Source of the DNA: Candidatus Electrothrix yaqonensis
GTDB lineage: Bacteria; Desulfobacterota; Desulfobulbia; Desulfobulbales; Desulfobulbaceae
Reading direction: 5' to 3'
DNA length: 32,000 bases
Assembly (NCBI GenBank): GCA_047651235.1
Contig: CP178758.1
Location: 1,830,001 to 1,862,000 of the forward strand
The notes under the pieces were generated by a model. It was not told the DNA's origin. It searched no databases and saw only the letters and a program-made list of their open reading frames with translations. The position numbers were made by a program, and so were the translations under genes. The stretch's first letter is position 1, and each line of letters begins with the position of its first letter. Shown in pieces: positions 196 to 20,152 of this stretch.

Positions 196-307
196 CTTGT
201 ATAAGAAAGTTGATTACTGCTGTTTCCTTCTGAATTGCAAGAGAAAGAGAGGAGAAAATTTGCGGTGCGGCTTTCGTAAAAAGTTTGTCAGTCGTATACA
301 GAAACAA

Positions 308-526
308 CATTCATAATTATGGCAGCGCTTATTCAGTAAGCAGGTGCTGTGCTTTCCGGTCGGAAACGGAAAGCTGATAAAGCCACAACCGCCGCGAGGC
401 GGTGTCGGAAAACTTCGGGTCTCCGGAAAGGAGACGGCCGGGTTGCCTGCTTTTAGTCAGATGTACCGGGAGGTAAGTTATGAAGTCGAAGCTCCTTAAA
501 ACGGTCTGTAACCATACAGTCCTTTT
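308..526 (+). ncRNA. Structured RNA unit 1 (riboswitch-like or sRNA-like, class unassigned)
   Basis: Closing helix AAGCAGG (338-344) / CCTGCTT (446-452). Hairpin A 351-358/367-374. Hairpin B ACCGCC-GCGA-GGCGGT (388-403, GNRA loop). Hairpin C GTCTCC-GGAAA-GGAGAC (419-435). Then GGGAGG (468-473) and ATG (480-482). Then hairpin GGTCTGTA-ACCA-TACAGTCC (503-522) followed by TTTT (523-526). GNRA loops exist only in + strand sense. Confidence 0.6.
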
Positions 527-544
527 ACCTTTCACAAACACGAA

Positions 545-766
545 CATTCATAATTATGGCAGTGCTTATTATTCAGTAAGCAGGTGCTGTGCTTTCCGGT
601 CGGAAACGGAAAGCTGATAAAGCCACAATCGTCGCGAGGCGATGTCGGAAAACTTCGGGTCTCCGGAAAGGAGACGGCCGGGTTGCCTGCTTTTAGTCAA
701 ATGTACCGGGAGGTAAGTTATGAAGTCGAAGCTCCTTAAAACGGTCTGTAACCATACAGTCCTTTT
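545..766 (+). ncRNA. Structured RNA unit 2
   Basis: Same architecture, core 578-692. Hairpin B is ATCGTC-GCGA-GGCGAT (628-643). Relative to unit 1, one C-G pair has become T-A (629:642) and one has become a T:G wobble (632:639). ATG 720-722. Hairpin plus T-run 743-766. Confidence 0.6.
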
Positions 767-784
767 ACCTTTCACAAACACGAA

Positions 785-1003
785 CATTCATAATTATGGC
801 AGCGCTTATTCAGTAAGCAGGTGCTGTGCTTTCCGGTCAGAAACGGAAAGTTGATAAAGCCACAACCGCTGCGAGGCGGTGTCGGAAAACTTCGGGTCTC
901 CGGAAAGGAGACGGCCGGGTTGCCTGCTTTTAGTCAGATGTACCGGGAGGTAAGTTATGAAGTCGAAGCTCCTTAAAACGGTCTGTAACTATACAGTCCT
1001 TTT
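785..1003 (+). ncRNA. Structured RNA unit 3
   Basis: Core 815-929. The closing pair of hairpin A changes from G-C to G:T (828:851). Hairpin B has a C-G to T:G change (870:875). The other changes fall in loops (GTCGGAAA to GTCAGAAA; ACCA to ACTA). ATG 957-959. Hairpin plus T-run 980-1003. Confidence 0.6.
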
Positions 1004-1021
1004 ACCTTTCACAAACACGAA

Positions 1022-1194
1022 CATTCATAATTATGGCAGCGCTTATTCAGTAAGCAGGTGCTGTGCTTTCCGGTCGGACACGGAAAGCTGATAAAGCCAC
1101 AATCGTCGTGAGGCGATGTCGGAAAACTTCGGGTCTCCCAAAGGAGACGGCCGGGTTGCCTGCTTTTAGTCAAATCTGTACCGGGAGGTAAGTT
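1022..1194 (+). ncRNA. Structured RNA unit 4 (3' part replaced by unique sequence)
   Basis: Core 1052-1165. Hairpin B is ATCGTC-GTGA-GGCGAT (1102-1117): the loop is GTGA, still GNRA, and the stem carries the same compensated pair as unit 2. The hairpin C stem is kept while its loop changes (GGAAA to CAAA). GGGAGG then ATG at 1195. Confidence 0.55.
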
Positions 1195-1422
1195 ATGAAA
1201 TCGAAGTTCCCCAGAAGCGGCTTGCAGCTGTCTGTTTTCTTCAGCTGCGCCAGCAGTTCAGCTGGTCGCCGCCACTCTTCTCCTTCTGTTCGGAAAAAAC
1301 ACAAAATATTTACGGATAGTATCGGCTCCAAGTGTCATCGATCAGGTGCAGTTTTAGCTCTGTCTCCAGATTTCAAAGAGGGACAGTTCGACGATACTGA
1401 AAAACATCATTCAACCTGCTAA
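1195..1422 (+). CDS. Hypothetical 75-aa ORF starting at the conserved SD/ATG of RNA unit 4 (doubtful)
   Basis: GGGAGG lies 7 nt upstream of the ATG. The product has no recognisable motif and odd composition. It is the only ORF in 788-1640. It may be noncoding. Confidence 0.2.
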   Translation: MKSKFPRSGLQLSVFFSCASSSAGRRHSSPSVRKKHKIFTDSIGSKCHRSGAVLALSPDFKEGQFDDTEKHHSTC

Positions 1423-1664: not shown

Positions 1665-2078
1665 ATGGATAGATATTTTACAATAATACTACTGATGTTA
1701 TTTCTTTGTACTGCGTCTGTGGCTATTGGAAAAGAAAATAAACAATTTTCCGGTGCTTTTTTGATTGACCAAACTGTAAAAGCAAACGATTTTACCGGGA
1801 AATCTGTTAGTGATGCCGGTGTTGCCCAAGGCGGAAATGTTGTTACAGGAATGGCGATTGCAGGAGTAGGTCAGAACGCAATTCTTGACGGTGACCTTGA
1901 ATTGAAAATGAAAAAAGGCGAGCGCAACACCCAGGGCCTGAACGTTGTTTCCGGCAAAGTAACGGCGCTTGTCGGTCAGATCGGCGTGGTTGATGAGGAT
2001 GCCGCACTGAAATCTGTAGGCAATGAGAAGTCTGCGCAGGGCATAAACGTGGTCAACGCCTGCGAGGGATGTCAGTAA
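1665..2078 (+). CDS. Secreted QG-x-NV repeat protein, copy 0 (137 aa; chimeric: divergent low-GC 5' part, 3' part identical to the array)
   Basis: GGAGG (1652-1656) lies 8 nt before the ATG at 1665; the track start at 1641 is a TTG. Hydrophobic signal peptide MDRYFTIILLMLFLCTASVAIG. From nt 1917 onward it is identical to the downstream copies. Confidence 0.8.
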   Translation: MDRYFTIILLMLFLCTASVAIGKENKQFSGAFLIDQTVKANDFTGKSVSDAGVAQGGNVVTGMAIAGVGQNAILDGDLELKMKKGERNTQGLNVVSGKVTALVGQIGVVDEDAALKSVGNEKSAQGINVVNACEGCQ

Positions 2079-2093
2079 TCAGGAAGTCGAAAA

Positions 2094-2151
2094 CGCCGGA
2101 CGGTGCGTGTCCGGCGGTACAGGATACAACGGAAGCGGTGGGGACCGCTTC
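2094..2151 (+). other. Intercistronic double hairpin, present in all six 111-bp spacers (also at +537, +1074, +1611, +2148, +2685)
   Basis: Hairpin CGCCGGAC-GGTGCGT-GTCCGGCG (2094-2116) and hairpin GAAGCGGT-GGGG-ACCGCTTC (2132-2151). Neither is followed by a T-run. TACAAT (2163-2168) and GGAG follow. Confidence 0.6.
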
Positions 2152-2189
2152 ATTAACTACACTACAATTGTACTACGGAGACTGAAGAA

Positions 2190-2615
2190 ATGAAAATGAA
2201 ATTTATAGCAGCAGCATTCGCACTGGCACTGGCAGTACCCGCAGCATCCATGGCCAACGGCGGCAGGCATCATCAGTTCGGCGGTCAGGCTGCCGGTATC
2301 GTGCAGGGTCTTGAAACCGGTGAGGATTTTTCGGCAGATTCAATAGGCGACGAGAAAGTCACTCAGGGCGGCAACGTGGTCAAGGGTAATGTGACCAAAG
2401 GTATCCTGCAGCTCGCCGATGTGGGCGGTGATCTTGATCTGACCATGGTGGGCGGCGAGCGCAACACCCAGGGCCTGAACGTTGTTTCCGGCAAAGTAAC
2501 GGCGCTTGTCGGTCAGATCGGCGTGGTTGATGAGGATGCCGCACTGAAATCTGTAGGCAATGAGAAGTCTGCGCAGGGCATAAACGTGGTCAACGCCTGC
2601 GAGGGATGTCAGTAA
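2190..2615 (+). CDS. Secreted QG-x-NV repeat protein, array copy 1 (141 aa)
   Basis: GGAG lies 9 nt before the ATG. Signal peptide MKMKFIAAAFALALAVPAASMA. QG-x-NVV occurs at residues 59-64, 94-99 and 129-134, exactly 35 residues apart. C-terminus is NACEGCQ. Confidence 0.85.
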   Translation: MKMKFIAAAFALALAVPAASMANGGRHHQFGGQAAGIVQGLETGEDFSADSIGDEKVTQGGNVVKGNVTKGILQLADVGGDLDLTMVGGERNTQGLNVVSGKVTALVGQIGVVDEDAALKSVGNEKSAQGINVVNACEGCQ

Positions 2616-2726
2616 TCAGGAAGTCGAAAACGCCGGACGGTGCGTGTCCGGCGGTACAGGATACAACGGAAGCGGTGGGGACCGCTTCATTAACTACACT
2701 ACAATTGTACTACGGAGACTGAAGAA

Positions 2727-3152
2727 ATGAAAATGAAATTTATAGCAGCAGCATTCGCACTGGCACTGGCAGTACCCGCAGCATCCATGGCCAACGGCGG
2801 CAGGCATCATCAGTTCGGCGGTCAGGCTGCCGGTATCGTGCAGGGTCTTGAAACCGGTGAGGATTTTTCGGCAGATTCAATAGGCGACGAGAAAGTCACT
2901 CAGGGCGGCAACGTGGTCAAGGGTAATGTGACCAAAGGTATCCTGCAGCTCGCCGATGTGGGCGGTGATCTTGATCTGACCATGGTGGGCGGCGAGCGCA
3001 ACACCCAGGGCCTGAACGTTGTTTCCGGCAAAGTAACGGCGCTTGTCGGTCAGATCGGCGTGGTTGATGAGGATGCCGCACTGAAATCTGTAGGCAATGA
3101 GAAGTCTGCGCAGGGCATAAACGTGGTCAACGCCTGCGAGGGATGTCAGTAA
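2727..3152 (+). CDS. Secreted QG-x-NV repeat protein, array copy 2 (identical)
   Basis: Translation and flanks identical to 2190-2615. Confidence 0.85.
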   Translation: MKMKFIAAAFALALAVPAASMANGGRHHQFGGQAAGIVQGLETGEDFSADSIGDEKVTQGGNVVKGNVTKGILQLADVGGDLDLTMVGGERNTQGLNVVSGKVTALVGQIGVVDEDAALKSVGNEKSAQGINVVNACEGCQ

Positions 3153-3263
3153 TCAGGAAGTCGAAAACGCCGGACGGTGCGTGTCCGGCGGTACAGGATA
3201 CAACGGAAGCGGTGGGGACCGCTTCATTAACTACACTACAATTGTACTACGGAGACTGAAGAA

Positions 3264-3689
3264 ATGAAAATGAAATTTATAGCAGCAGCATTCGCACTGG
3301 CACTGGCAGTACCCGCAGCATCCATGGCCAACGGCGGCAGGCATCATCAGTTCGGCGGTCAGGCTGCCGGTATCGTGCAGGGTCTTGAAACCGGTGAGGA
3401 TTTTTCGGCAGATTCAATAGGCGACGAGAAAGTCACTCAGGGCGGCAACGTGGTCAAGGGTAATGTGACCAAAGGTATCCTGCAGCTCGCCGATGTGGGC
3501 GGTGATCTTGATCTGACCATGGTGGGCGGCGAGCGCAACACCCAGGGCCTGAACGTTGTTTCCGGCAAAGTAACGGCGCTTGTCGGTCAGATCGGCGTGG
3601 TTGATGAGGATGCCGCACTGAAATCTGTAGGCAATGAGAAGTCTGCGCAGGGCATAAACGTGGTCAACGCCTGCGAGGGATGTCAGTAA
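3264..3689 (+). CDS. Secreted QG-x-NV repeat protein, array copy 3 (identical)
   Basis: Translation and flanks identical to 2190-2615. Confidence 0.85.
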   Translation: MKMKFIAAAFALALAVPAASMANGGRHHQFGGQAAGIVQGLETGEDFSADSIGDEKVTQGGNVVKGNVTKGILQLADVGGDLDLTMVGGERNTQGLNVVSGKVTALVGQIGVVDEDAALKSVGNEKSAQGINVVNACEGCQ

Positions 3690-3800
3690 TCAGGAAGTCG
3701 AAAACGCCGGACGGTGCGTGTCCGGCGGTACAGGATACAACGGAAGCGGTGGGGACCGCTTCATTAACTACACTACAATTGTACTACGGAGACTGAAGAA

Positions 3801-4226
3801 ATGAAAATGAAATTTATAGCAGCAGCATTCGCACTGGCACTGGCAGTACCCGCAGCATCCATGGCCAACGGCGGCAGGCATCATCAGTTCGGCGGTCAGG
3901 CTGCCGGTATCGTGCAGGGTCTTGAAACCGGTGAGGATTTTTCGGCAGATTCAATAGGCGACGAGAAAGTCACTCAGGGCGGCAACGTGGTCAAGGGTAA
4001 TGTGACCAAAGGTATCCTGCAGCTCGCCGATGTGGGCGGTGATCTTGATCTGACCATGGTGGGCGGCGAGCGCAACACCCAGGGCCTGAACGTTGTTTCC
4101 GGCAAAGTAACGGCGCTTGTCGGTCAGATCGGCGTGGTTGATGAGGATGCCGCACTGAAATCTGTAGGCAATGAGAAGTCTGCGCAGGGCATAAACGTGG
4201 TCAACGCCTGCGAGGGATGTCAGTAA
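3801..4226 (+). CDS. Secreted QG-x-NV repeat protein, array copy 4 (identical)
   Basis: Translation and flanks identical to 2190-2615. Confidence 0.85.
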   Translation: MKMKFIAAAFALALAVPAASMANGGRHHQFGGQAAGIVQGLETGEDFSADSIGDEKVTQGGNVVKGNVTKGILQLADVGGDLDLTMVGGERNTQGLNVVSGKVTALVGQIGVVDEDAALKSVGNEKSAQGINVVNACEGCQ

Positions 4227-4337
4227 TCAGGAAGTCGAAAACGCCGGACGGTGCGTGTCCGGCGGTACAGGATACAACGGAAGCGGTGGGGACCGCTTCA
4301 TTAACTACACTACAATTGTACTACGGAGACTGAAGAA

Positions 4338-4763
4338 ATGAAAATGAAATTTATAGCAGCAGCATTCGCACTGGCACTGGCAGTACCCGCAGCATCCATG
4401 GCCAACGGCGGCAGGCATCATCAGTTCGGCGGTCAGGCTGCCGGTATCGTGCAGGGTCTTGAAACCGGTGAGGATTTTTCGGCAGATTCAATAGGCGACG
4501 AGAAAGTCACTCAGGGCGGCAACGTGGTCAAGGGTAATGTGACCAAAGGTATCCTGCAGCTCGCCGATGTGGGCGGTGATCTTGATCTGACCATGGTGGG
4601 CGGCGAGCGCAACACCCAGGGCCTGAACGTTGTTTCCGGCAAAGTAACGGCGCTTGTCGGTCAGATCGGCGTGGTTGATGAGGATGCCGCACTGAAATCT
4701 GTAGGCAATGAGAAGTCTGCGCAGGGCATAAACGTGGTCAACGCCTGCGAGGGATGTCAGTAA
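4338..4763 (+). CDS. Secreted QG-x-NV repeat protein, array copy 5 (identical)
   Basis: Translation and flanks identical to 2190-2615. Confidence 0.85.
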   Translation: MKMKFIAAAFALALAVPAASMANGGRHHQFGGQAAGIVQGLETGEDFSADSIGDEKVTQGGNVVKGNVTKGILQLADVGGDLDLTMVGGERNTQGLNVVSGKVTALVGQIGVVDEDAALKSVGNEKSAQGINVVNACEGCQ

Positions 4764-4874
4764 TCAGGAAGTCGAAAACGCCGGACGGTGCGTGTCCGGC
4801 GGTACAGGATACAACGGAAGCGGTGGGGACCGCTTCATTAACTACACTACAATTGTACTACGGAGACTGAAGAA

Positions 4875-5300
4875 ATGAAAATGAAATTTATAGCAGCAGC
4901 ATTCGCACTGGCACTGGCAGTACCCGCAGCATCCATGGCCAACGGCGGCAGGCATCATCAGTTCGGCGGTCAGGCTGCCGGTATCGTGCAGGGTCTTGAA
5001 ACCGGTGAGGATTTTTCGGCAGATTCAATAGGCGACGAGAAAGTCACTCAGGGCGGCAACGTGGTCAAGGGTAATGTGACCAAAGGTATCCTGCAGCTCG
5101 CCGATGTGGGCGGTGATCTTGATCTGACCATGGTGGGCGGCGAGCGCAACACCCAGGGCCTGAACGTTGTTTCCGGCAAAGTAACGGCGCTTGTCGGTCA
5201 GATCGGCGTGGTTGATGAGGATGCCGCACTGAAATCTGTAGGCAATGAGAAGTCTGCGCAGGGCATAAACGTGGTCAACGCCTGCGAGGGATGTCAGTAA
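4875..5300 (+). CDS. Secreted QG-x-NV repeat protein, array copy 6 (identical; last unit)
   Basis: Translation identical to 2190-2615. Downstream sequence diverges immediately after the stop codon. Confidence 0.85.
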   Translation: MKMKFIAAAFALALAVPAASMANGGRHHQFGGQAAGIVQGLETGEDFSADSIGDEKVTQGGNVVKGNVTKGILQLADVGGDLDLTMVGGERNTQGLNVVSGKVTALVGQIGVVDEDAALKSVGNEKSAQGINVVNACEGCQ

Positions 5301-5503: not shown

Positions 5504-5941
5504 ATGGTAAAAAAAATATTTTTTACAATAGGCACCGCTGCGATCTTTTTGTTGCCGTCAGCGGCTATGTCACATGAACGAGGTAATCTCTTTGATCAGT
5601 TTAACAATGCTGATGTTGCGGCATTTCAGGGAGTATTTCTGGACCAGGCCATGACAGTGACGTCGTCGAATGATACCAATTCTGTTCAGGGACTGAATGT
5701 GATCAAGGGATTTGCTGCCGGTGGCAAAGTGGTACAAAAGGCTATAGTTGACGCAGACTTATCGTTTGATATGTCTGGCGGGAACGATGCTGTTCAGGGG
5801 ATCAATGTCTATCAGGGCCATCTCAGGAGGGGGAAAATCTCTCAGCTGGCGATTGTTGACGGTAAGGTCACGATGGCATCAAGCGGTAATGATGGTGGAA
5901 TTCAGGGGATTAATGTGATCACCGGCCCTCAGTGCAACTGA
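5504..5941 (+). CDS. Divergent paralog of the QG-x-NV repeat protein (145 aa)
   Basis: AGGAGG lies before the ATG. Signal peptide MVKKIFFTIGTAAIFLLPSAAMS. QG-[LI]-NV at residues 62, 98 and 134 (36-residue spacing). C-terminus is GPQCN. Confidence 0.8.
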   Translation: MVKKIFFTIGTAAIFLLPSAAMSHERGNLFDQFNNADVAAFQGVFLDQAMTVTSSNDTNSVQGLNVIKGFAAGGKVVQKAIVDADLSFDMSGGNDAVQGINVYQGHLRRGKISQLAIVDGKVTMASSGNDGGIQGINVITGPQCN

Positions 5942-6033: not shown

Positions 6034-6381
6034 ATGAAAAGAAGTCTTATATTATCCGTTGTGTTATGCTGTTCTGTCCTGGCGGTTCAGGCGGCGTGTG
6101 CGTCTGAAGATGGAATGAAGATAAAAAAAGCAGACATTCCAAATGCAAACAGGACAGGGACTCTGGCATCAGTAATGAAGAAGGCCAAAGGGATTCAGGA
6201 TGATCAAGGACAAATTAACGAGATAACCGGCGGCACTAAGCTGACTGACGAAAAAGGAAACATCGTTGTTGTTGATGACCTAGACGAACCCACATGTGTT
6301 TTTTACGGCAATTACAACGAAGGTGACGCTAACGTCGATCAATATTTCAATATTGATAAGCTTGAGATTCAATGCAATTAA
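6034..6381 (+). CDS. Small secreted protein (115 aa), distant or minor member of the same locus
   Basis: GGGAGGAG (6021-6028) lies before the ATG at 6034; the track start at 5932 adds a non-signal-like extension. Signal peptide MKRSLILSVVLCCSVLAVQAACA. One QGQINEITGG motif. The C-terminus EIQCN shares QCN with the 5504 paralog. Confidence 0.7.
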   Translation: MKRSLILSVVLCCSVLAVQAACASEDGMKIKKADIPNANRTGTLASVMKKAKGIQDDQGQINEITGGTKLTDEKGNIVVVDDLDEPTCVFYGNYNEGDANVDQYFNIDKLEIQCN

Positions 6382-6727: not shown

Positions 6728-8266
6728 ATGAAGCGGTTACTCCGATCAGCCTGTCTGGGTGCTGTCCTGGCATGTATAAATACGGGATGCACAAATGTTG
6801 ATTCCGTAATATCAAATATTAACAGAGAAACGCCGTATTCTGCCTCAACAAATCTCACCGAAACGTTGAAATGTATAGGTATGGTGATCAATGAATCCGA
6901 ATCACGCCCTATTCTCTTTCTGGTAGATGATTTTTTTGACGGCACTGTTCCTATTGTAACAGATGCTCAAGCTATCCTGACAAGAGCCTACAGAAGTAAC
7001 GGCCCACTGGCTGACGGGGGAAAATATGATTTTGAGGCTGTCATCAAGCGGACAGTCTCCAGTCAGAAAATTGTCCTTCCGTATGCACTGCCCACCGGTG
7101 TAATACAGCATGAAGACATATATGGAAGGCTGAAGCCGGAGTACTTACAGGATCTTCTTAAAATATATAATGTCTCCGGTGTCGTCAGAGTGAAAGGAGT
7201 ATTCACCCAGAATGATTCCGCCGACTATATAAACAACGGATCCGGCAACAGTATCGAGCAGGAGGGAAAACGTGGTCGGACCGAGATAGAATACGGTCTC
7301 TCTGAAGCGTCCAAAAGTGTATCTCTGGCAATCTATCTGGGAAGTCCCTTGAATAATACTCTGATTGCCGCCACAACATTGACACTCAACATGCATACAA
7401 TGTCTGATGAGTTTTCAGTTGGTTTCGGATACGGGGAAGGTTCGATGAGTTTTGTCAACGAATCAAAAATTAAGGAAGGGCTGCATGGTTCGCAGAGAAC
7501 TCTGATTGAAGCTGCCGCAATGTGGATACTGCGCGGTCTGTACAGCAAACTTGATTTTTCTCAATGCGTTGCAGGGGGAGACGGAGAAGGCGGTGCTGCT
7601 ACACCTGATGCGACGATTGCGGCAAATGAAAGATGGCTGTCGCTTGATCCGGGAATGAAAATAAAATATCTGAAATTGATGCTCAGAGAGTTGGAGTACT
7701 ACAACGGTTCGATCAGCGACAGATATGATATCCCTCTGCAGAAAGCAATTGCCGCGTATGAAGCTGACAGCGGTATAATGATACCACATACAAAACATAA
7801 TCTGGGTGATCTGTTTATCTCACTATACGGTGCTGTTGAGATTGAAGAAATTGACAGAATGGCAAAGCATTCGGAAGTTTTCTTCGGAAATTGGGGCAGG
7901 AAACCGAAGAAAAGCACTGAGAAGGAGAATGCTGAACAGAGAGCTGTTAATCAGGATACTCCTGAAGATACTACGACTGGTCAGCAAAAAGATTCTGAGC
8001 AGAAGCCCATCAGGCAGGATTCTTCTAAAAAGGAGACCGCTAATCAGAAAAATCAGAAGCAGGCGCCCGCAGCTTCTGCGCAGAGGTCTGTTAATCAGGG
8101 GAACCCCGGAAATACAACTGGTAGGGAGAAGCAACAGATCCCTGAACAGAGGAAACCTGCTGAACGGGAGAGTACTGAAAAAAAACCGGTTGAAAGGAGG
8201 ATAGGGAGAAATACCACTGCCGGTTTGGTTATTATAAACGGTAAACGTCCTGTTAATTATAAATAG
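6728..8266 (+). CDS. Lipoprotein: CsgG-like(?) N-terminal domain + PG_binding_1-like domain + disordered K/Q/E-rich tail (512 aa)
   Basis: Signal with lipobox VLAC (MKRLLRSACLGAVLAC). My by-eye alignment to E. coli CsgG: ILFLVDDFFDGT versus KIFVSVYNIQDETG; VVRVKGVFTQNDS versus IMVEGSIIGYESN; SVSLAIYLGSPLNNTLIAATTLT versus QIAVNLRVVNVSTGEILSSVNTS. The PG-binding pattern is KYLKLMLRELEYYNGSISDRYDIPLQKAIAAYEADSGI. The last 130 or so residues are low complexity. Confidence 0.75.
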   Translation: MKRLLRSACLGAVLACINTGCTNVDSVISNINRETPYSASTNLTETLKCIGMVINESESRPILFLVDDFFDGTVPIVTDAQAILTRAYRSNGPLADGGKYDFEAVIKRTVSSQKIVLPYALPTGVIQHEDIYGRLKPEYLQDLLKIYNVSGVVRVKGVFTQNDSADYINNGSGNSIEQEGKRGRTEIEYGLSEASKSVSLAIYLGSPLNNTLIAATTLTLNMHTMSDEFSVGFGYGEGSMSFVNESKIKEGLHGSQRTLIEAAAMWILRGLYSKLDFSQCVAGGDGEGGAATPDATIAANERWLSLDPGMKIKYLKLMLRELEYYNGSISDRYDIPLQKAIAAYEADSGIMIPHTKHNLGDLFISLYGAVEIEEIDRMAKHSEVFFGNWGRKPKKSTEKENAEQRAVNQDTPEDTTTGQQKDSEQKPIRQDSSKKETANQKNQKQAPAASAQRSVNQGNPGNTTGREKQQIPEQRKPAERESTEKKPVERRIGRNTTAGLVIINGKRPVNYK

Positions 8267-12280: not shown

Positions 12281-13177
12281 ATGAAAATGAAATGCATCTC
12301 GGCATCTTTACTGCTCTTTTTACTCTTTTGGTTTGTTCCGACTGTTCAGGCGGCCGATTATACGAACAGTCTCGGTATGCAGTTCAACAATATCCCTGCC
12401 GGAACCTTCTTTATGGGGAGCTGTCTCCCTGAAGGAGCTGTCTGTCCCGGCAGGGGAAAAGCGGATAAAGATGCCCATAAGGGAGAGGCGCCCAAGCACG
12501 AAGTGCGGATTAGCAGAGGATTTCAGATAGGTGTTTATGAAGTCACTTTAGGAGAGTTTAAACAATATCTTGCCTGCCTGCCCGCCGGAGAGCGGGCTGC
12601 AGTGGCAACAGACAGATTCAGCAGATTTAATACACACGGGGATAATGCGGCTGTGGTGGTTGTTTCCTGGGAGGATGTACAGGGATTTATCCGCTGGCTG
12701 AACAAAAAAGAGGGTGGCCGTGCCTACCGGCTGCCCACCGAGGCGGAATGGGAGTATGCTGCCAGGGCGGGAACAGAGACGGTGTATTTCTGGGGCGATG
12801 AACCGGAGAAGGCTCCGGAATATGCCTGGCTTAACATGGAAGGAGCAGACCTGCGCAAATGGTTCCAGAAAGGGCCTTCGGGGAAAAAAGAAGATTTTCC
12901 TCATCCAGTCGGTCTGAAGAAACCCAATCCCTGGGGCTTATACGATATAGCTGGCAATGTCTGGGAGTGGGTGGATGACTGGTACAGCGAGGACTATTAC
13001 CGCATCAGTCCCAAGGTTGATCCGACCGGTCCGGCAACCGGTCGTGTCCGTTGTTTTCGGGGCGGCAGCTGGTACGGGTCGGCAAGGAATTTGCGCTCCG
13101 CTGTCCGCGGGCTGAATACCCCAGATTACCTCAGCGATTCTTTGGGATTCCGTCTGGTGCGGCAGGTCGGACGATAA
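12281..13177 (+). CDS. Secreted formylglycine-generating-enzyme (SUMF1/FGE-sulfatase) domain protein
   Basis: Signal peptide ...VPTVQA. YRLPTEAEWEYAARAG, GNVWEWVDDWY and RGGSW are hallmark strings of the FGE-sulfatase domain. AGGAG lies before the ATG. Confidence 0.85.
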   Translation: MKMKCISASLLLFLLFWFVPTVQAADYTNSLGMQFNNIPAGTFFMGSCLPEGAVCPGRGKADKDAHKGEAPKHEVRISRGFQIGVYEVTLGEFKQYLACLPAGERAAVATDRFSRFNTHGDNAAVVVVSWEDVQGFIRWLNKKEGGRAYRLPTEAEWEYAARAGTETVYFWGDEPEKAPEYAWLNMEGADLRKWFQKGPSGKKEDFPHPVGLKKPNPWGLYDIAGNVWEWVDDWYSEDYYRISPKVDPTGPATGRVRCFRGGSWYGSARNLRSAVRGLNTPDYLSDSLGFRLVRQVGR

Positions 13178-13243
13178 TTTTTCTCAGTTTCTCTGCAAAC
13201 AGGGCCGGTTCGGACCGGTTTGCAGCGGGTGGATATGATACCC

Positions 13244-14029
13244 TCATCTTTTTTCCCTGCTGAAGCGTTCTTTGAAAATCAGATAGAAAAAAAACAGGTT
13301 GCCGATCAGATATCTCTTCCACAATCGTTTCGGTTCGATGAGCAGTCTGGCCAGCCATTCCATGCCGTTGTCTGTCATCCAGCTAGGGCCTCGGCGCAAT
13401 TCCCCGGAAACATAGTCGAACAGGGCACCGGCGGAAAAACCGACATTGACGTTCAGCCTGTCCCAATTTTCCTTGAGCCACTTTTCCTGCAGCGGCATAC
13501 CGAACCCGACAATCAGAACATTGGCCTTTGAGGCATTGATCAGGCGGATAATTTCCTCATTCTCCGGCGAATCCGGGGATTTGTCAAAATATCCGTGCCG
13601 GGTGGTGATCTGCAGAGCAGGAAAACGTTCTTTCAGTTTCAGCGCAGCTTTGTCGGCGATACCCGGTTTTGCCCCGAGGAAAAAAAAGCTGATGCCTTTC
13701 TCTTCCGCCAGTTCTGCCAGGCTCCACATCGAATCGGCCGGGGTGCTGCGCCCCGGTATGTGATGACCCAGAATTCTGGCGCCCAGGACAACACCGGCTC
13801 CGTCACAGAAGACCAGCCCGGCCTGATTGAGAAAATCCCGCAGCCAGGGGTTATGATACACCATATTGTAGCAGTGCGTATTGACATTCAGGACCAGAGA
13901 CTTGCGTTGTCGGGCAACTACATCGGCGATGTACTGGCAGATTCCTGCTTCCCCTAACAGATGGACCTGCACACCGAGGATAGGGACACTGTCGAGATGG
14001 TCAAAAGACTGTATGGATTGGGTTGTCAT
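13244..14029 (-). CDS. WecB/TagA/CpsF-family glycosyltransferase
   Basis: DGAGVVLGARILG and ...GPSWMTDNGMEWLARLLIEPKRLWKRYLIGN are typical of this family. Start set at the ATG at 14029 (MTTQSIQ); the alternative at 14092 would overlap the upstream gene. Confidence 0.8.
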   Translation of the reverse strand: MTTQSIQSFDHLDSVPILGVQVHLLGEAGICQYIADVVARQRKSLVLNVNTHCYNMVYHNPWLRDFLNQAGLVFCDGAGVVLGARILGHHIPGRSTPADSMWSLAELAEEKGISFFFLGAKPGIADKAALKLKERFPALQITTRHGYFDKSPDSPENEEIIRLINASKANVLIVGFGMPLQEKWLKENWDRLNVNVGFSAGALFDYVSGELRRGPSWMTDNGMEWLARLLIEPKRLWKRYLIGNLFFFYLIFKERFSREKR

Positions 14030-14054
14030 GGTACGGTCATCAGATAAACAGGAC

Positions 14055-15212
14055 TTACTGAACAAGTTCAGTGTACAGGCGCATGTAGGCATCTGTCATT
14101 GTTTTTGCAGAGTACTTTTCCGCTATGGTTGCAAAGGCATTGGCCGCCATCCTGTCTGCTTCTTCGGGAAGGCGCAGCAGCCGGAGCATTGCGGAAGCCA
14201 GCTTTTCCGCATTGGCCGGAGGGACCAGCAGGCCGTTTTCCTCATCTTGGATGATCCGGCCTACCCCGCCGACTTCACTTGCAATGACCGGGAGTTGCGC
14301 GGACATGGCTTCCAGCAGGGCCATGGGTGTGCCTTCCAGCAGCGAAGGCAGAACAAAAATATCCAAGGCAGAATAGAATGCAGCGATATTCGGACGGAAT
14401 CCGGCAAAGATCACTGCGTCCGAGATACCGAGTTCTACAGCGTATTGCCGCATTTCGTCCCCCTGAAACCCGTCACCCACAAGAATAAAATGTGCTTCAG
14501 GGAAAACTTTCAGCACCTGCGCAGCTGCAGCAAGAAAGTATTTCTGGCCTTTTTCCGGGCTGATCCTGCCGAATACGCCGATCAGCGGCGTTCCCGGCGC
14601 GATCTTGAATTCTTCGCGAATTGTGTCCCTTGCCTGCTGATCTTTCCGGAATTCCTGCATATCGATCCCGTTGATGATCACCTGCATTTTTCCGGCCGGG
14701 GTCAGATAGCGGCGCATGAGCTGCCGGACCTCCGGTGAAACCGCGACGATTTTCGGAAAAAAGCGGATGTAAAAAGCATCCAGGGATTCAAAGCAGGTGA
14801 CCAGAAAATCACTGCGGATCCAGTTGTGATTTGTGGTGATGAGCCGGGCCGGAGTGCCCATTGCAGAGAGCAGGCCGTAGAGCCGTCCTTTCATTTCATG
14901 GCAGTGGACAACGGCAATGTTCTCCCGGCGGATGAGTTCCCTGATCTGCCGCACCGCTTCCGGATCGATCCATCTCCGGCAGGTGATGACATGCCCCTGA
15001 GCGTCTTTTGCCTGGGCAGCATTGATCAGTTCCATGTTCGGATAGCCTTCCGCTTGGAGCAGGGCTATAGACGGGGTGAAGCGGCTGTGGTCCGTAGCGC
15101 CGATCAGATTCAGGATAATGCGTTCAGCACCGTACAGACCGCGGCTGCTGATCAGATGGAGTACGTTCAGAGGCTGCTGCTCTACGGTATTCTGTGTATT
15201 CTGCTTCGTCAT
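14055..15212 (-). CDS. Glycosyltransferase family 4 (GT-B, group 1)
   Basis: 385 aa. N-terminal LHLISSRGLYGAERI and C-terminal ...LPSLLEGTPMALLEAMSAQLPVIAS...ENGLLV (the E-x7-E region of GT4). Confidence 0.85.
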   Translation of the reverse strand: MTKQNTQNTVEQQPLNVLHLISSRGLYGAERIILNLIGATDHSRFTPSIALLQAEGYPNMELINAAQAKDAQGHVITCRRWIDPEAVRQIRELIRRENIAVVHCHEMKGRLYGLLSAMGTPARLITTNHNWIRSDFLVTCFESLDAFYIRFFPKIVAVSPEVRQLMRRYLTPAGKMQVIINGIDMQEFRKDQQARDTIREEFKIAPGTPLIGVFGRISPEKGQKYFLAAAAQVLKVFPEAHFILVGDGFQGDEMRQYAVELGISDAVIFAGFRPNIAAFYSALDIFVLPSLLEGTPMALLEAMSAQLPVIASEVGGVGRIIQDEENGLLVPPANAEKLASAMLRLLRLPEEADRMAANAFATIAEKYSAKTMTDAYMRLYTELVQ

Positions 15213-15229
15213 TGTTTTTTGTTTACGGT

Positions 15230-16384
15230 TTACTCTGCTTCCGCCCTGCCTGTGCTGCGGAGCGCCAGCCGGACTGCGTCCGCATAGCCTTTTACCGCTG
15301 GTGCGAGGTCATTTTTCCGGGCAAGTATTTTTCCGGCCTCGGCCATACGTTGGCGCATCTCTGGATCACGGGCCATTTTTTCCATTGCTGCAGCCATTTC
15401 ATCCGTATTTTCCGGATCAACAATGATGCCGTTTTCCCTGACCATATCGTTGGCTGCCCCGGCATAGCGGGAACAGATGACCGGAAGACCGCAGGCCACG
15501 GCTTCAGCCACCACCAGGCCGAAAACATCCAGCCGTGTGGGCAGGACAAAGACATCATGCCGGACCATTTCTGCGGGCACAGATTCATACGGGACACTGC
15601 CCGGAAAAAGAACAGCATGCTCACAGCCCAGCTCCTTTGCCAGCGCCTTGAGCGCTTCCAGATCAACACCTTTGCCGATTAGGGTCAGCAGGGCGTCAGG
15701 GACAGATTCCAGCAGCCGGGCAAAGGCCCGGATCAGTAGGTCAATACCCTTTCTCGGCTTTATCTCACCAACATAGACGAACTTGACCGGGTCGTTATCC
15801 TGCCGTGGCGGTTTTTCCGGTACGCCGACTGCAGCCAGATGCTCCTGAATATGGGCGCTCAGGCTGCTGAGAAACTCTTTTGATTTGGGGTAACCGAAGT
15901 TGTCGCTGAAGTGATCCAGCGTGTCTGTACAGGAGCCGATCAGGGCATGGGCAAAAAAAAGCAGAAATCTGCGGTTGCTCCTTCTGAGCAGGCCCATACG
16001 TTTGTCATGGTGATAGGTCATATCTGACCAGATCACATAACTCCGCCGGTTCAACCGCGCCCAGAGGGCACCGATAATGCAGTCAAAACGGAATTCCAGA
16101 CTGACCACCACATCCGGTCGGATCTTCCTTAGCCTCTGCAGCAGCCCGGAAGGATAGCGAATCAGCAGACGCTCTCCGAACATCTGATTGGTTTTCCACA
16201 AAAAAAACGGCTTTAAATAATAGGCGCGAAAGGGCAGGTCCTCAGGAGGGTGCCATTCTCTGCCGACTTCCTTGGGCATGGTATAGAGCACCGTGATATC
16301 AAATTCACGGGCCAGTTCACGCAGCAGGGGCACCCGATAAGGATCGTACCAGGGGCACAGGATCAGGACGGTCTTTTTTTTCAT
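15230..16384 (-). CDS. Glycosyltransferase family 4 (GT-B, group 1)
   Basis: ...FVLPTRLDVFGLVVAEAVACGLPVICS...ENGIIV is the GT4 signature. Start set at the ATG at 16384 (MKKKTVLIL); a GTG at 16402 is the alternative. Confidence 0.8.
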   Translation of the reverse strand: MKKKTVLILCPWYDPYRVPLLRELAREFDITVLYTMPKEVGREWHPPEDLPFRAYYLKPFFLWKTNQMFGERLLIRYPSGLLQRLRKIRPDVVVSLEFRFDCIIGALWARLNRRSYVIWSDMTYHHDKRMGLLRRSNRRFLLFFAHALIGSCTDTLDHFSDNFGYPKSKEFLSSLSAHIQEHLAAVGVPEKPPRQDNDPVKFVYVGEIKPRKGIDLLIRAFARLLESVPDALLTLIGKGVDLEALKALAKELGCEHAVLFPGSVPYESVPAEMVRHDVFVLPTRLDVFGLVVAEAVACGLPVICSRYAGAANDMVRENGIIVDPENTDEMAAAMEKMARDPEMRQRMAEAGKILARKNDLAPAVKGYADAVRLALRSTGRAEAE

Positions 16385-16412
16385 CCGGTTATCTGGTTGC
16401 ACGATTTGCCGG

Positions 16413-17132
16413 TCAGAATTGACGTCGGCGGAAAAAATTTTTTATTCTGCGGGCAGGCTGGAGCAGGATACGCATCACCCATGTTGCACGCCACCCTGTA
16501 TTGTGCAGATCACTGTGTGAAGCACGGTCCCGGATGACTTGCGGTTCAGCAATCAGGGTCAGGGTCTCCGGATATTTTCTCCGGAAGACGTTGAACGCAC
16601 CATCGACATCTATTGGTCTGTGCTGCTCCAGTTCCTCAAGATGCTCAATGAGAGGAGCAAACGTCGGGCGGCTGACAGCGTATGCATGTGTGCATCTGAG
16701 AGAATCGGGCAGCGGGCGCATTTCGACGTGTTCGGTTTTCCGTGAAGCAAGTGTACTGCCTTCAACATGCGTATAGCCGAGGTAGGCGAAGTTCCATGAT
16801 GCGTCCTGCAGTTGCTGCTGCATAGCTGGCCAGAGTTGTTCAAATATACTGACAAATTCCACATCATCTTCTATGACAAGTACGTTTGAAAGGTCGAGTT
16901 CAGCAGCCTTTCTGAGGATGGAGAGATGACTGAGGAAACACCCCCGTACACCCGGAGAAGAAAACCCTGCTGCCTCGGTCGGCTTGACTGCCGGAAACAG
17001 CTCGACTTTTCCCGGAGTAAAGGAAATCCCGATACGTTGCAGCGCTTCTGTTATTTCCCGGCGACGGTCTATCCGCTCAGGAAGGTTGACAACATAGATT
17101 TTGTCGAAGTAGTTTTCCAATCTGTCATTCAT
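16413..17132 (-). CDS. Glycosyltransferase family 25-like
   Basis: 239 aa. N-terminal FDKIYVVNLPERIDRRREI and GCFLSHLSILRKA, VLVIEDDVEF match the GT25 pattern as I recall it. Confidence 0.7.
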   Translation of the reverse strand: MNDRLENYFDKIYVVNLPERIDRRREITEALQRIGISFTPGKVELFPAVKPTEAAGFSSPGVRGCFLSHLSILRKAAELDLSNVLVIEDDVEFVSIFEQLWPAMQQQLQDASWNFAYLGYTHVEGSTLASRKTEHVEMRPLPDSLRCTHAYAVSRPTFAPLIEHLEELEQHRPIDVDGAFNVFRRKYPETLTLIAEPQVIRDRASHSDLHNTGWRATWVMRILLQPARRIKNFFRRRQF

Positions 17133-17196
17133 GGCAATGTTGAAAATAAATTATTCCAGCTGGTTCTGTATGGTTCTCTATATAACGGCGTACCCG

Positions 17197-17883
17197 TCAG
17201 GACGTTTGCTGTTCAACAGCGGGAGATGGAGATGATTCTTCTGCCGCAAATTTCAGGCCGAAGAGATACCATACCATAATGCTGACGATCACCATCTCTC
17301 CTGCATCTTCGATTAATCCAAATACCTGTCCTCCCCAAGGAATGGCCACGTGAGCTACATCCACGACAACACCGAAAAAAACCAGAGAGCATGCCAGCAG
17401 AAAGATATTATGCGATATTTTCCGTTCATGATTGGTACTGAACAGGTAAGCCCAACCTATAAAGGAAAAGAGCAATACGCCGAACACAGCAGATACAGCA
17501 AGCTCCCCGAAATCCTGTGCCCGCAGGTTGAAGATCCCATGAAAACCGAAATAGTTGACCAGGAATTCCCCGAGTTGTTCATGTACTCTGAAGGAATCGT
17601 CAAGCAGAAAATAGAAAAACAATGCAGCCCAGGAAATATAAACTATTCTTTTTTCTTTGATCGCAATGATGCTCAGCAGGAGGATGATCCACAGTTCTTT
17701 TGTATACTGATAAAATTCCGCATATCCTTTATCCTTTTCTACTGAAAACAGGACACTTTCAAGAATACCTGCCATATAGAAAAGGTGGATCAGTACAAAG
17801 GCAAGATCTGCAGCAAGCAACAGAAACAAGAGTTTGTTCGTATTGTCATCTATGTCGAAATATTGTTTTATTCTCAGCTTCAT
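17197..17883 (-). CDS. Polytopic membrane protein, unknown function (about 6 TM)
   Basis: 228 aa with alternating hydrophobic segments. It lies inside the glycan cluster. No motif recognised. Confidence 0.6.
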   Translation of the reverse strand: MKLRIKQYFDIDDNTNKLLFLLLAADLAFVLIHLFYMAGILESVLFSVEKDKGYAEFYQYTKELWIILLLSIIAIKEKRIVYISWAALFFYFLLDDSFRVHEQLGEFLVNYFGFHGIFNLRAQDFGELAVSAVFGVLLFSFIGWAYLFSTNHERKISHNIFLLACSLVFFGVVVDVAHVAIPWGGQVFGLIEDAGEMVIVSIMVWYLFGLKFAAEESSPSPAVEQQTS

Positions 17884-17979
17884 CGCCTGTCCTTGTTATT
17901 CCGCATCTGCCTATGCGGAGCAGTTCTGTTCAGTTTTGTCGCATTTTGCTTTGACTGCTGCTGTCAGCGGCTGAGAGAT

Positions 17980-19137
17980 TTATTGCGCAACAGCATCTTG
18001 ACACAGCTTCAGCATCCGTCCTGCATTATCTTTCCATGTAAAATTATCTTCCATAACCTTTCTGGCGTTTTTGCCGAGCTCATGTCTGAGCTGTATATCT
18101 GTCATCAGGCGTTGTATCTGCTCAACCAAGGCGGCTTGATCACCCGGCGGGTACAACAGACCGCTTACGTTATCCGTAATCAGTTCACAAATCTGGCCCT
18201 GCGCAGAGGAAATAACAGATTTCCCCAGAGCCATGGCCTCAAAGATTTTCAGCGGTGAAAAATAAAACGGGGTGATTTTCGGATAAGGGGCAACAAAAAT
18301 ATCAATAACAGCAAGATATTCCGGTATATCTTCGTGTGGAACATGGCCGGTTATGGTTGTAACTGCAGCAGGAAAATCGGGCATTTCCAATATATCGCTT
18401 GGTTCTCCAATAAGCAGCAGGGCCAGTTCTTCATATTGATTTGATTCACAAATAAGCTCGATAGCTTCTGCCAGCAGAGGCAGCCCATGCCAGGGGGCAA
18501 AACTGCCTGAAAAACCCACAACGGTTTTATTCTGCAGTCCGAGTTGTTCTCGTATCCGGTTGCCGCTGATATCGGGATGAAAGACCTGGGGATCGACCCC
18601 GTTCGGAACGCTGCTTATTTTTTCCGCAGAAATGCCGCATGTTATATAATGTTGCCGTAATGTTTCAGAAACCACCATGTTATGAGTTGCCAGTCCCATT
18701 ATTTTTTTGTCCACCAGCGCCCAGAAAGATTTTCCTCTCAGCTGCTGCTCTTTCGGCATAAACTGGTCTTCCATAGGCGGGGCGTTGATTTCCAGGACAA
18801 GAGGAATTTTCAGCAGACGGCATAACAGAACCGCTGATCTGTACCGTGCCATTCGTAAGATGACAACATCCGGTCTTTCTTTTTTCAGCAGTCGGAATTC
18901 AGCCGCAGCCTGACGGGTAAACATGACAACAAGCAGGCGAATCTCGCGAAGGTGGTTTAAAATATTCGAGAAGCTCTCCTGTGATTCCTGTTCGTCGTCC
19001 TCCGGTGCATCCTGGCGGGCCAAGGGGGTATGCACAACAACATCATCGTGTATTTCTTTCAAAGCAGCGATAAACTGAGTGGTATGTACCCAAGAACCGC
19101 CACCGTATTTCTCATAATTTATGTAGCATATTTTCAT
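17980..19137 (-). CDS. Glycosyltransferase family 4 (GT-B, group 1)
   Basis: 385 aa. ...FVAPYPKITPFYFSPLKIFEAMALGKSVISS...SGLLY is the GT4-type C-terminal signature. Confidence 0.8.
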   Translation of the reverse strand: MKICYINYEKYGGGSWVHTTQFIAALKEIHDDVVVHTPLARQDAPEDDEQESQESFSNILNHLREIRLLVVMFTRQAAAEFRLLKKERPDVVILRMARYRSAVLLCRLLKIPLVLEINAPPMEDQFMPKEQQLRGKSFWALVDKKIMGLATHNMVVSETLRQHYITCGISAEKISSVPNGVDPQVFHPDISGNRIREQLGLQNKTVVGFSGSFAPWHGLPLLAEAIELICESNQYEELALLLIGEPSDILEMPDFPAAVTTITGHVPHEDIPEYLAVIDIFVAPYPKITPFYFSPLKIFEAMALGKSVISSAQGQICELITDNVSGLLYPPGDQAALVEQIQRLMTDIQLRHELGKNARKVMEDNFTWKDNAGRMLKLCQDAVAQ

Positions 19138-19190
19138 AATTTGAATTCAACTATTATGTATTCGGCATTACGGGAATACTGCGGAAATTG

Positions 19191-20045
19191 TCACATGTCA
19201 AACAAATAATTCCACTCTGTCTGCCGGAAAAAGTTCTGCAGCTCATCGTAATTTTCGATAACCTCCGACAGAGAGCGTGTTTCCTGTTTGACTTTACTGA
19301 CTTGTAAATCACGGATATCCGTTCCGATAAATTGCTGAATAGCTTTTAAATGCCTATGGGGATCTGCAGCCAGATCTTCATAAACAATATCGAATACTTC
19401 ATGAAGTCTGATATATTGTTTTATTTCCTCATGCGAAGCCTTTCTCTGCTGAAATTCAGCCAGACATTCTGTCGGATCAATCGTAACAGTTGTTGTTGAT
19501 CGTTCGGATTTATCCAGGATCCCGAATCTGCCGTCTTTCATGGCGACCAGTAATGATGTATATGCTGCCAGCAGATTTTTTCGTGTCAGATGAATAAGTT
19601 TTATGTCTTTATTTTGTTCAAGCCACTGCCGTATACACCGGAATCGGGCATTCCGCTCTATATGTTCAGGGAAGAATTTAAATCCGACTGCCTGTATCTC
19701 ATCCGGATAGAAGGAAAAAATATGGCGATCAAGGAAATCAACAGGATATTTATTTCTCAGGGCAAGGGTTCTGGTGGAATAATTGTCATATCCTTCAACA
19801 TTAAAGCCCACACTGTCTGCAGTGAAAAGTTCTCCGAAGCCGACAATCTGCGGGTGTGTCCGCAAGGTTCCGATCATCATTGAAGAACCGGACCGCTGAT
19901 GTCCGAGGATGATGAATTTCTGATAGCTCCGGTTGCTTCCTTTCAAGCCCCTTGGCAACGAGTCGATATCTGTCGGCTTCACTGCACAGGAAGAAGCGAA
20001 AAGGGCTATTTTTTGTAGTGCATTGTCAATGTGCCGTCCAATCAT
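19191..20045 (-). CDS. Sulfotransferase family protein (PAPS-dependent, Stf0-like)
   Basis: 5'-PSB-like loop ILGHQRSGSSMM. 3'-PB-like IHLTRKNLLAAYTS. Confidence 0.7.
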   Translation of the reverse strand: MIGRHIDNALQKIALFASSCAVKPTDIDSLPRGLKGSNRSYQKFIILGHQRSGSSMMIGTLRTHPQIVGFGELFTADSVGFNVEGYDNYSTRTLALRNKYPVDFLDRHIFSFYPDEIQAVGFKFFPEHIERNARFRCIRQWLEQNKDIKLIHLTRKNLLAAYTSLLVAMKDGRFGILDKSERSTTTVTIDPTECLAEFQQRKASHEEIKQYIRLHEVFDIVYEDLAADPHRHLKAIQQFIGTDIRDLQVSKVKQETRSLSEVIENYDELQNFFRQTEWNYLFDM

Positions 20046-20152
20046 TCGTATATCCTTGGTAGTTACGATGAATAATCTAACTAATAATCTATTGTAACCG
20101 TTTTTATTTGTATCTGCACAGGATTAAAACTGATATTGAAAAAGTACGACAG

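Follow-up and report, generated by a model that had tools for sequence, protein, structure and literature searches.

Organization of the Locus

The window analyzed here, a 32,000-nt stretch of the genome of the cable bacterium Ca. Electrothrix yaqonensis YB6 (described in PMC12093952), carries a tandem array of identical genes, here called A, which encode a small exported protein. The array begins with a chimeric gene (A') lying downstream of a series of riboswitch aptamers, and is followed by an A paralog (B), a gene for a second small secreted protein (C) and a lipoprotein gene (D). The coordinates of these features are given in Table 1.

Table 1. Features of the A array and the adjoining genes, in window coordinates
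Feature	Position	Strand	Description
237-bp tandem units, x3.8	306..1210	+	one c-di-GMP-I-GGC-type aptamer in each
c-di-GMP-I-GGC (RF03167) aptamers	373-451, 613-691, 850-928, 1087-1164	+	covariance model match
A' (ACL93V_08665, 137 aa)	1665..2078	+	first gene of the array; chimera
Tandem DNA block	1917..5300		100% identical, period 537 bp, 6.3 units
A copy 1	2190..2615	+	141-aa pre-protein; 100% identical to ACL93V_08695 (Ca. Electrothrix sp. YB6)
Spacer, 111 nt	2616..2726	+	recurs after A' and copies 1-5
A copy 2	2727..3152	+	identical to copy 1
A copy 3	3264..3689	+	identical to copy 1
A copy 4	3801..4226	+	identical to copy 1
A copy 5	4338..4763	+	identical to copy 1
A copy 6	4875..5300	+	coding sequence identical; unique DNA directly after the stop codon
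B, 145-aa A paralog	5504..5941	+	three repeats, 36-aa register, N-terminal FDQF, C-terminal PQCN
C, 115-aa secreted protein	6034..6381	+	motif VD(D/N)..EPxCVFYGNY, penultimate C-terminal Cys
D (ACL93V_08715), 512-aa lipoprotein	6728..8266	+	invariant Gly-Cys at residues 20-21

The identity of the window with itself at a shift of 537 bp (w[i] = w[i+537]) is unbroken from position 1917 to position 4763. The signal peptide and the first repeat of A' are its own and are similar to those of a metagenomic family member (P0010), and from nt 1917 on the gene is the same as A; such a chimera would be the expected outcome of unequal crossing-over or of gene conversion involving two paralogs. The spacer contains two GC-rich hairpins (MFE -38.1 kcal/mol, z -3.4) and a GGAGA ribosome-binding site located 9 nt 5' of the ATG. 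The 54-aa open reading frames running antisense in each unit (2380-2544 on the minus strand, for example) were rejected as genes, being by-products of the repeated DNA.

The fact that the six copies show no differences at all over 3.4 kb, and that identical tandem repeats are hard to assemble, might suggest that the array is an artefact of assembly or polishing, or else a recently amplified silent locus with no functional consequence. We consider this extremely improbable: the genome is closed and was assembled from both long and short reads (PMC12093952), all the reading frames of the array are intact with a ribosome-binding site before each of them, and in an independent metagenome contig (L012) two diverged A genes lie in tandem, with a recognizably similar spacer, including the same hairpins, between them. 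The latter finding argues that the multi-copy state of A is a real trait of the lineage and not solely a feature of the assembly. Even if the copy number were wrong, the gene, the family and the module described below would still be real.

The Repeats of the A Protein

The A pre-protein consists of a signal peptide (residues 1-22), an N-terminal segment with the motif QFGG, which forms part of the sequence GGRHHQFGG, three 35-aa QGxNVV repeats and a C-terminal ACEGCQ. Cleavage of the predicted Sec signal peptide after ...ASMA would give a mature protein starting with NGG, of 119 aa and 11.9 kDa, with a pI of 4.6, 19% Gly and 13% Val, and without any Trp, Tyr or Pro. The tryptic peptides of A include NTQGLNVVSGK and VTALVGQIGVVDEDAALK.

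The QGxNVV motifs, counted on the translation, are TQGGNVVKG (58-66), TQGLNVVSG (93-101) and AQGINVVNA (128-136). At a lag of 35 residues the BLOSUM62 self-score of A amounts to 112, as against a maximum of 36 for the best lag in 2000 shuffled versions of the protein (mean -3.4, sd 9), and the 35-residue periodicity is thus far above chance. The three 35-aa frames (33-67, 68-102, and 103-137) are identical to one another at 13-14 of 35 positions in each pairwise comparison, and a second conserved Gln follows the same register (Q39, 59, 74, 94, 109, and 129, with a 20/15 spacing). At the DNA level, all 24 occurrences of the pattern CAR-GGN-NNN-AAY-GT in the window fall within the A-type genes and the paralog starting at 5504, with intervals of 105 nt in the case of A and 108 nt (36 aa) in that of the paralog. 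The C-terminal ends of the three small proteins read CEGCQ in A, PQCN in B and IQCN in C. An earlier note made from the sequence had described an open reading frame at 2190-2615 with a mature product of about 119 aa after ...ASMA, a strict 35-residue QGxNVV periodicity, the same register over 36 residues in the paralog, and a Cys one or two residues from the C-terminus in all three protein types; the translations, the reading of the signal peptide, the self-scores and the motif spacing agree with this description on every one of these points, including the motif positions.

Membership and Conservation of the A/B Family

No matches above noise were obtained when A, A', B, C, and D were scanned against Pfam and NCBIfam. 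When 39 aligned members of the A/B family were compared with Pfam, no match was found at E-values up to 5, the NCBIfam scan was likewise empty, and a profile search of the PDB sequences with the A family yielded none, so that the statement in the earlier note that no described family carries this signature held in all these searches. Searches of the accessible literature on cable bacteria in connection with curli, riboswitches, amyloid or fiber proteomics turned up no account of the A family either, and none of the papers covered relates cable bacteria to curli-like systems or to riboswitches. The A/B, C, and D families appear to be undescribed so far.

An HMM scan of 1.84 billion representative proteins gave only 34 A-family clusters (23 of them below 1e-10), the sources being cable bacteria, a small number of Neisseria and occasional metagenomes. 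The cable-bacterial members belong to Ca. Electrothrix and Ca. Electronema (the latter from the 'Desulfobulbus sp. F3/F4' records), others come from scattered metagenomes, and the neisserial members were found in Neisseria zalophi, N. dumasiana, N. animaloris, and Neisseria sp. MVDL19. All the named members are annotated as 'hypothetical'. A hand-made two-motif DNA pattern picked out 23 stretches, only three of which were real loci (Ca. Electronema TJ, a Ca. Electrothrix MAG, and Neisseria sp. MVDL19), and scanning genome contigs with peptide patterns drawn from an alignment of close relatives gave no confirmed match. The family members have a common plan, with a signal peptide, a short N-terminal segment often containing FDQF, FDPF or QFGG, and three repeats. 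Within the family, B falls into a distinct orthologous subgroup (P0011-14, 18, 19, 21).

The repeat consensus was pooled from the 117 repeat units of the 39 members. It has hydrophobic residues at positions 5, 9, and 11 with a Gln at position 7 (90%), then a G/D/D turn (12-14), Leu 15, a polar residue at 16, Leu/Met 17, and a G/N-rich turn (21-25), and closes with Gln 27 (95%), Gly 28 (87%), any residue, Asn 30 (99%), Val 31, Val/Ile 32, any residue, and Gly 34. Each repeat therefore comprises three short segments of alternating polarity with conserved Gln and Asn. The hydrophobic-alternating segments that the earlier note had placed after each motif were recovered in this consensus, as alternating hydrophobic and polar stretches with Gly/Asp/Asn turns between them. 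The pattern is that expected of a β-solenoid coil with internal Gln/Asn ladders, which we infer from the sequences. A β-solenoid or stacked β-arches would be compatible with the consensus. The AlphaFold2 monomer of A (eight-sequence alignment) had a pLDDT of 34, too low to be of use, and showed strand fragments only, located at the NVV positions.

The paired His and the C-terminal CxxC, which the earlier note had listed among the features of A, are both present in A itself but are not general in the family. The HH pair is kept in three of the seven closest relatives, the others having NN, MN or LD instead. A Cys pair occurs in 21 of the 39 members, always at or near the C-terminus: in 19 it takes the form Cx2-5C-x at the C-terminal end, and in two it is a CxxC inside the last repeat. 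Two further members have a single penultimate Cys, and 16, including all the Neisseria proteins, have no C-terminal Cys. Where the mature proteins contain Cys, it is restricted to their C-terminal end. As every Neisseria member and some 40% of the family lack the pair, it is, to judge from this distribution, a lineage-specific addition and not the core of the mechanism, the scaffold working without it. In A, the pair would be compatible with a disulfide lock, a cross-link or a ligand site.

A Gene Module Shared with Neisseria and a Mobile Element

In the other genomes carrying the family, A is followed by C (secreted, 103-120 aa) and then by D (lipoprotein, 295-550 aa), D being located after A in all the loci listed; in cable bacteria, B usually lies between A and C. 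The module was found in Ca. Electrothrix YB6, GW3-4, and MAGs, in Ca. Electronema F3, F4, and TJ, in several Neisseria and in a mobile element. The order is A'-A x6-B-C-D in the YB6 window, A-C-D-omptin in Ca. Electrothrix GW3-4, A-B-C-D-YkuD-like (L,D-transpeptidase) in Ca. Electronema F3/F4, and A-C-D in Neisseria zalophi. Two metagenomic contigs extend this picture: the genes run DsbA-like ... A-B-C-D-YkuD-like-TrpRS in a MAG contig (L005) and A-B-C-D-TrpRS(-) in another (L011), where the synteny with TrpRS is the same as in the window. In the mobile element (L007), where the module adjoins genes for a TraG-like coupling protein and a serine recombinase, an unrelated 114-aa protein without Cys occupies the position of C between A and D. 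The linkage of A, C, and D across such distant lineages argues that they are not neighbors by chance.

C matched no Pfam or NCBIfam family. Its Cys pair, consisting of the Cys of the EPxC motif and the penultimate one, is kept even in Neisseria, and the near-C-terminal Cys of A, B, and C therefore need not share one cause.

These comparisons bear on whether A is a polymer subunit at all. It might be a soluble, non-polymerizing exported protein, for instance a small β-solenoid adhesin, or a thiol or metal buffer of the periplasm that employs its HH and CxxC, with C and D as chance neighbors. CxxC and HH are classic redox and metal motifs, and the AlphaFold monomer shows no confident fold, both of which would suit this reading. 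We nevertheless hold it to be decidedly unlikely, given the variable HH and the absence of Cys from so many family members, the A-C-D linkage over distant lineages, and the presence of a major/minor paralog pair together with a sevenfold amplification, which better suits a bulk structural product.

The Lipoprotein D

By the invariant Gly-Cys ending its signal peptide, D is a lipoprotein. Its C-terminal helical domain is PG_binding_1-like (a weak match in 20 of 21 D homologs, precomputed for two), and the YB6 protein has an extra low-complexity tail of about 125 aa, a kind of tail also present in some marine Electrothrix. Every named cable-bacterium genome that came up contained a D homolog, among them those of E. 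gigas, AR3, AUS3, and Ca. Electronema TJ, JC, and PJ; outside the cable bacteria, D homologs occurred only in Neisseria-like sequences. A profile search of the PDB sequences with the D family gave no match, and no CsgG match was found when D and its homologs were compared with Pfam.

The AlphaFold2 model of mature D, based on a 33-sequence alignment, has a pLDDT of 72 and a pTM of 0.58. It shows an α/β core from which strands of 20-24 residues project as hairpins with low-confidence tips. The Foldseek search of the PDB with this model returned one fold class only. The best matches were HpaA of Helicobacter pylori (PDB 8t8d, E 3e-6) and the N-domain of Vibrio FlgT (PDB 3w1e, E 1e-5). CsgG was represented by more than 20 chains, of the pre-pore as well as the membrane form (E 8e-5 to 5e-3, over 230-307 aligned columns), and PelC, LptE, and GNA1162 matched too. 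The TM-scores are modest, at 0.26-0.30 when normalized on the query, which includes the extra domain, and 0.34-0.51 when normalized on the target; on the latter scale the CsgG chains reach 0.34-0.47, and HpaA and FlgT do slightly better. The order of the elements in D, compared by eye, parallels that in CsgG: a β-strand ending in D-G-T, a helix, a V-K-G-V-F-T-Q-N-D-S strand, hairpin 1, a strand pair, hairpin 2, and a long helix. On the basis of the matches of the model and this order of elements, D is assigned to the CsgG/HpaA/FlgT-N fold class.

The two hairpins of CsgG go on to form its transmembrane barrel. Hairpin 2 of the D model shows an alternation of aromatic and small residues (FSVGFGYGEGSMSF), as expected of a CsgG-type hairpin, and hairpin 1 is largely polar. 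Channel formation by D is an attractive hypothesis in the light of the model. Against it stand the modest TM-scores, the polar hairpin 1, the fact that neither HpaA nor FlgT, the top matches, is a channel, and the PG-binding domain, which is not a feature of CsgG and would fit periplasmic anchoring too. HpaA is an outer-membrane lipoprotein, like D, but the sequence identity of D with HpaA and FlgT is only 8-11%, their genes do not lie beside genes for repeat subunits, and they lack the long hairpins and the PG-binding-like domain of D.

Comparison with Curli and Other Repeat Proteins

The module resembles the curli system in several ways. A is small, Sec-exported and rich in Gly, Gln, and Asn, with imperfect repeats in which Gln and Asn positions are conserved; it is adjoined by a paralogous second subunit (B) and a small secreted accessory protein (C); and the predicted fold of the outer-membrane lipoprotein D matches CsgG. 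There are also differences. The repeat of A is 35 aa long with the pattern Q...QGxNVV, instead of the 19-23 aa of the curlin repeat (S-x5-Q-x-G-x-G-N-x-A-x3-Q), the genes of the module all run in one direction in a single operon-like row, D carries a PG-binding-like domain, and the cable-bacterial A subunits end in CxxC.

Profile comparison with the genuine E. coli proteins using hhalign showed no similarity, with a probability of 0.2% for the A family with CsgA and 0.5% for the D family with CsgG. The Pfam Curlin_rpt model was matched by none of the 39 A-family members, and no homologs of CsgD, CsgE or CsgF were found by Pfam or NCBIfam for C or any neighboring gene. Since there is no homology with CsgA or CsgG and the repeat measures 35 aa as against about 22, we call the module curli-like in its working, and not curli.

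The β-solenoids of HET-s and of the fungal and bacterial amyloid signaling proteins have a period of about 36 residues with Asn/Gln ladders and Gly turns, a plan that the A repeats may share. Unlike A, the HET-s-type motifs serve in cytoplasmic signaling, consist of two repeats, and have neither a signal peptide nor a lipoprotein partner.

Proposed Function of the Module

The explanation that we consider the best, and to which we would give about an even chance of being correct, is that A is the major subunit of an undescribed envelope or extracellular fiber system, which would work like curli with non-homologous parts. The repeats of A would stack as a β-solenoid with Gln and Asn forming internal ladders, and the subunits would polymerize head to tail. 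B, which is present in a single copy next to the amplified A, would be a minor or nucleating subunit, C a periplasmic accessory factor or helper, and D an outer-membrane export or assembly platform tied to the peptidoglycan. In cable bacteria, the C-terminal CxxC may form a disulfide locking the last layer or cross-linking the subunits. The six identical copies of A and the chimera would have arisen in YB6 by unequal crossing-over between A' and A. This would raise the dosage of A about sevenfold, so that A might be made in far greater amounts than B, C, and D, and the hairpins between the copies may either stabilize the mRNA or partly terminate transcription.

Alternatively, A and B may polymerize inside the envelope, as a periplasmic fiber or lattice under the outer membrane, with D as a PG-binding organizer comparable to HpaA and FlgT and not a channel; the polymer might belong to the ridge or fiber compartment, as a non-conductive protein shell for example. 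This reading draws on the non-pore nature of the top Foldseek matches of D, on its PG-binding-like domain, on the YkuD-like L,D-transpeptidase gene located 3' of D in Ca. Electronema and in the L005 contig, and on the occurrence of D in every cable-bacterium genome that turned up. It is also in keeping with the YB6 ridges, which are 2-3 times wider than those of other cable bacteria (PMC12093952), and with the fact that the protein of the periplasmic fibers, which is not α-helical, is still to be named (PMC8238962). The module also occurs in Neisseria and in a mobile element, both of which are without ridges, and the D model has the long hairpin extensions that set CsgG apart from HpaA and FlgT; with these points against it, we regard the intra-envelope polymer as rather unlikely.

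As to the product of the curli-like system in YB6, this strain forms abundant non-conductive sheaths made of 'undefined nanofibers', the composition of which is not given (PMC12093952), and the sheath or the wide ridges could be the sink for the amplified subunit. That A itself forms these extracellular sheath nanofibers is a tentative idea that we would call unlikely, and yet likelier than A and B being the building blocks of the fibers in the periplasm of cable bacteria. The latter, which we hold to be very unlikely, would require a solenoid protofilament presenting one CxxC per ~1.4-1.5 nm (each subunit contributing three 4.8-Angstrom layers), whose thiolates would serve as ligands or docking sites for the sulfur-ligated nickel cofactor; the sevenfold dosage would then be accounted for by the broader ridges of YB6.

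Two protein materials of cable bacteria await assignment: the conductive fibers of the periplasm, which are protein-rich and not α-helical (PMC8238962), and the extracellular sheath nanofibers of YB6 (PMC12093952). The locus offers a concrete candidate for these materials, which can be checked by mass spectrometry: A is an exported repeat subunit with dedicated envelope partners, present in every cable-bacterium genome that came up, and the strain in which its dosage is sevenfold has both the most abundant sheath and the broadest ridges. Independently of cable bacteria, the A-(B)-C-D module, which Neisseria associated with animals and a mobile element carry as well, has the look of another way of making a curli-type fiber, from parts without homology to curli. 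If this is true, it would extend the known range of bacterial functional-fiber systems, and A/B, C, and D would count as new protein families, at least three in number.

The Upstream Riboswitch Array

The four aptamers upstream of A' match RF03167 over its full length (model positions 1-80), including both stems and the conserved junction nucleotides, with scores of 54.4-58.4 bits (E ~1e-11 to 1e-12), all of which lie just below the gathering score of 59. To our knowledge, the ligand of the c-di-GMP-I-GGC variant is not settled. GGGAGG and an ATG come after every aptamer, and units 1-3 additionally have a hairpin with a T-run behind it. Since no riboswitch was found beside the module in 11 other loci, the aptamers are best regarded as a neighbor of uncertain relevance and not as a part of the system; whether they belong to the A array is uncertain. 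A second-messenger switch placed before an operon for matrix fibers would make biological sense; tandem c-di-GMP riboswitches are known to precede genes for surface proteins, and their enrichment has been reported in Thermodesulfobacteriota (PMC12452182).

The arrangement can be compared with the triple-tandem c-di-GMP-I (GEMM-I) riboswitch located 5' of the collagen-adhesion protein gene in Bacillus thuringiensis, where complete head-to-tail units likewise precede the gene of a surface or matrix protein that is exported. Unlike the B. thuringiensis example, the YB6 array has four units, matches the GGC variant model, and is separated from the first subunit gene by a gap of about 500 nt, which contains a 75-aa open reading frame that could be placed in no known family, together with a promoter-like stretch rich in AT.

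Organization of the array and its upstream region

The first gene of the array, A', is chimeric: its signal peptide and first repeat are its own, and its 3' half is that of the amplified copies of A, the 141-aa exported repeat protein. The A' sequence is identical to these copies from nt 1917 onward, a switch that places the junction at which the amplification recombined. The spacers between the copies each contain two GC-rich hairpins (z -3.4), which are conserved, at 429-539 of locus L012, in a metagenome relative carrying two diverged tandem A genes. These hairpins probably serve as stabilizers of the mRNA 3' end or as partial terminators. The antisense ORF recurring in every repeat unit was rejected as a gene and is regarded as a by-product of repeated GC-rich coding DNA.

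Upstream of the array, four riboswitch units of the c-di-GMP-I-GGC type are arranged head-to-tail, one per 237-bp repeat. On the 3' side of each of the four aptamers, a GGGAGG motif is followed by the ATG of a short MKSK... ORF, and units 1-3 additionally carry a hairpin followed by a T-run. After the fourth aptamer, this ATG opens an ORF of 75 aa, which may be the remnant of a gene once under riboswitch control. A riboswitch tandem of four is unusual.

Features of the window and of homologous loci (window positions unless a locus is named)
Feature	Position	Strand
Riboswitch units	306-1210 (aptamers 373-451, 613-691, 850-928, 1087-1164)	+
75-aa ORF, beginning MKSKFPRSGLQL...	1195-1422	+
A'	1665-2078	+
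54-aa antisense ORF	2380-2544 and same position in every repeat unit	-
Spacer hairpins	2616-2726 and equivalent spacers	
Tail of D	~7880-8266 (residues ~385-512)	
FGE-sulfatase-like gene, then polysaccharide cluster	12281-22532	- (polysaccharide cluster)
Non-ribosomal peptide synthetase	22591-31968	-
YkuD-like genes and DsbA-like gene of L005	L005 (10750-11556; 6103-6993), L008 (3749-4495), L009 (3170-3952)	
Divergent A of the A-D pair	L006/L007, 6001-6444	

The lipoprotein D and its neighbors

Most homologs of the lipoprotein D end at ~380-400 aa. The YB6 protein is extended by a low-complexity tail enriched in Lys, Gln, Glu, and Pro, and E. gigas, AUS3, and 'Desulfobulbus sp. TB' likewise have long forms (519-547 aa). 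In L005 and in Ca. Electronema F3/F4, D is followed by a gene for a YkuD-like protein (L,D-transpeptidase); L005 additionally has a gene encoding a DsbA-like thioredoxin upstream. These neighbors may point to peptidoglycan tethering and to the formation of disulfides. The divergent A-D pair of L006/L007, in which an unrelated 114-aa protein takes the place of the secreted protein C, belongs to a mobile element, since it has a TraG/TrwB-like coupling protein on one side and a serine recombinase on the other. Carriage of this kind could account for the patchy spread over cable bacteria and Neisseria.

Other gene clusters

The Wzx-type polysaccharide cluster following the FGE-sulfatase-like gene encodes WecG/TagA, three GT4 and one GT25 glycosyltransferases, a flippase, and two sulfotransferases. 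Its product could be a sulfated exopolysaccharide, and the cluster may bear on the sheath or envelope. The non-ribosomal peptide synthetase is a single 3125-aa protein that comprises three adenylation modules and whose C-terminus is thioesterase-like.
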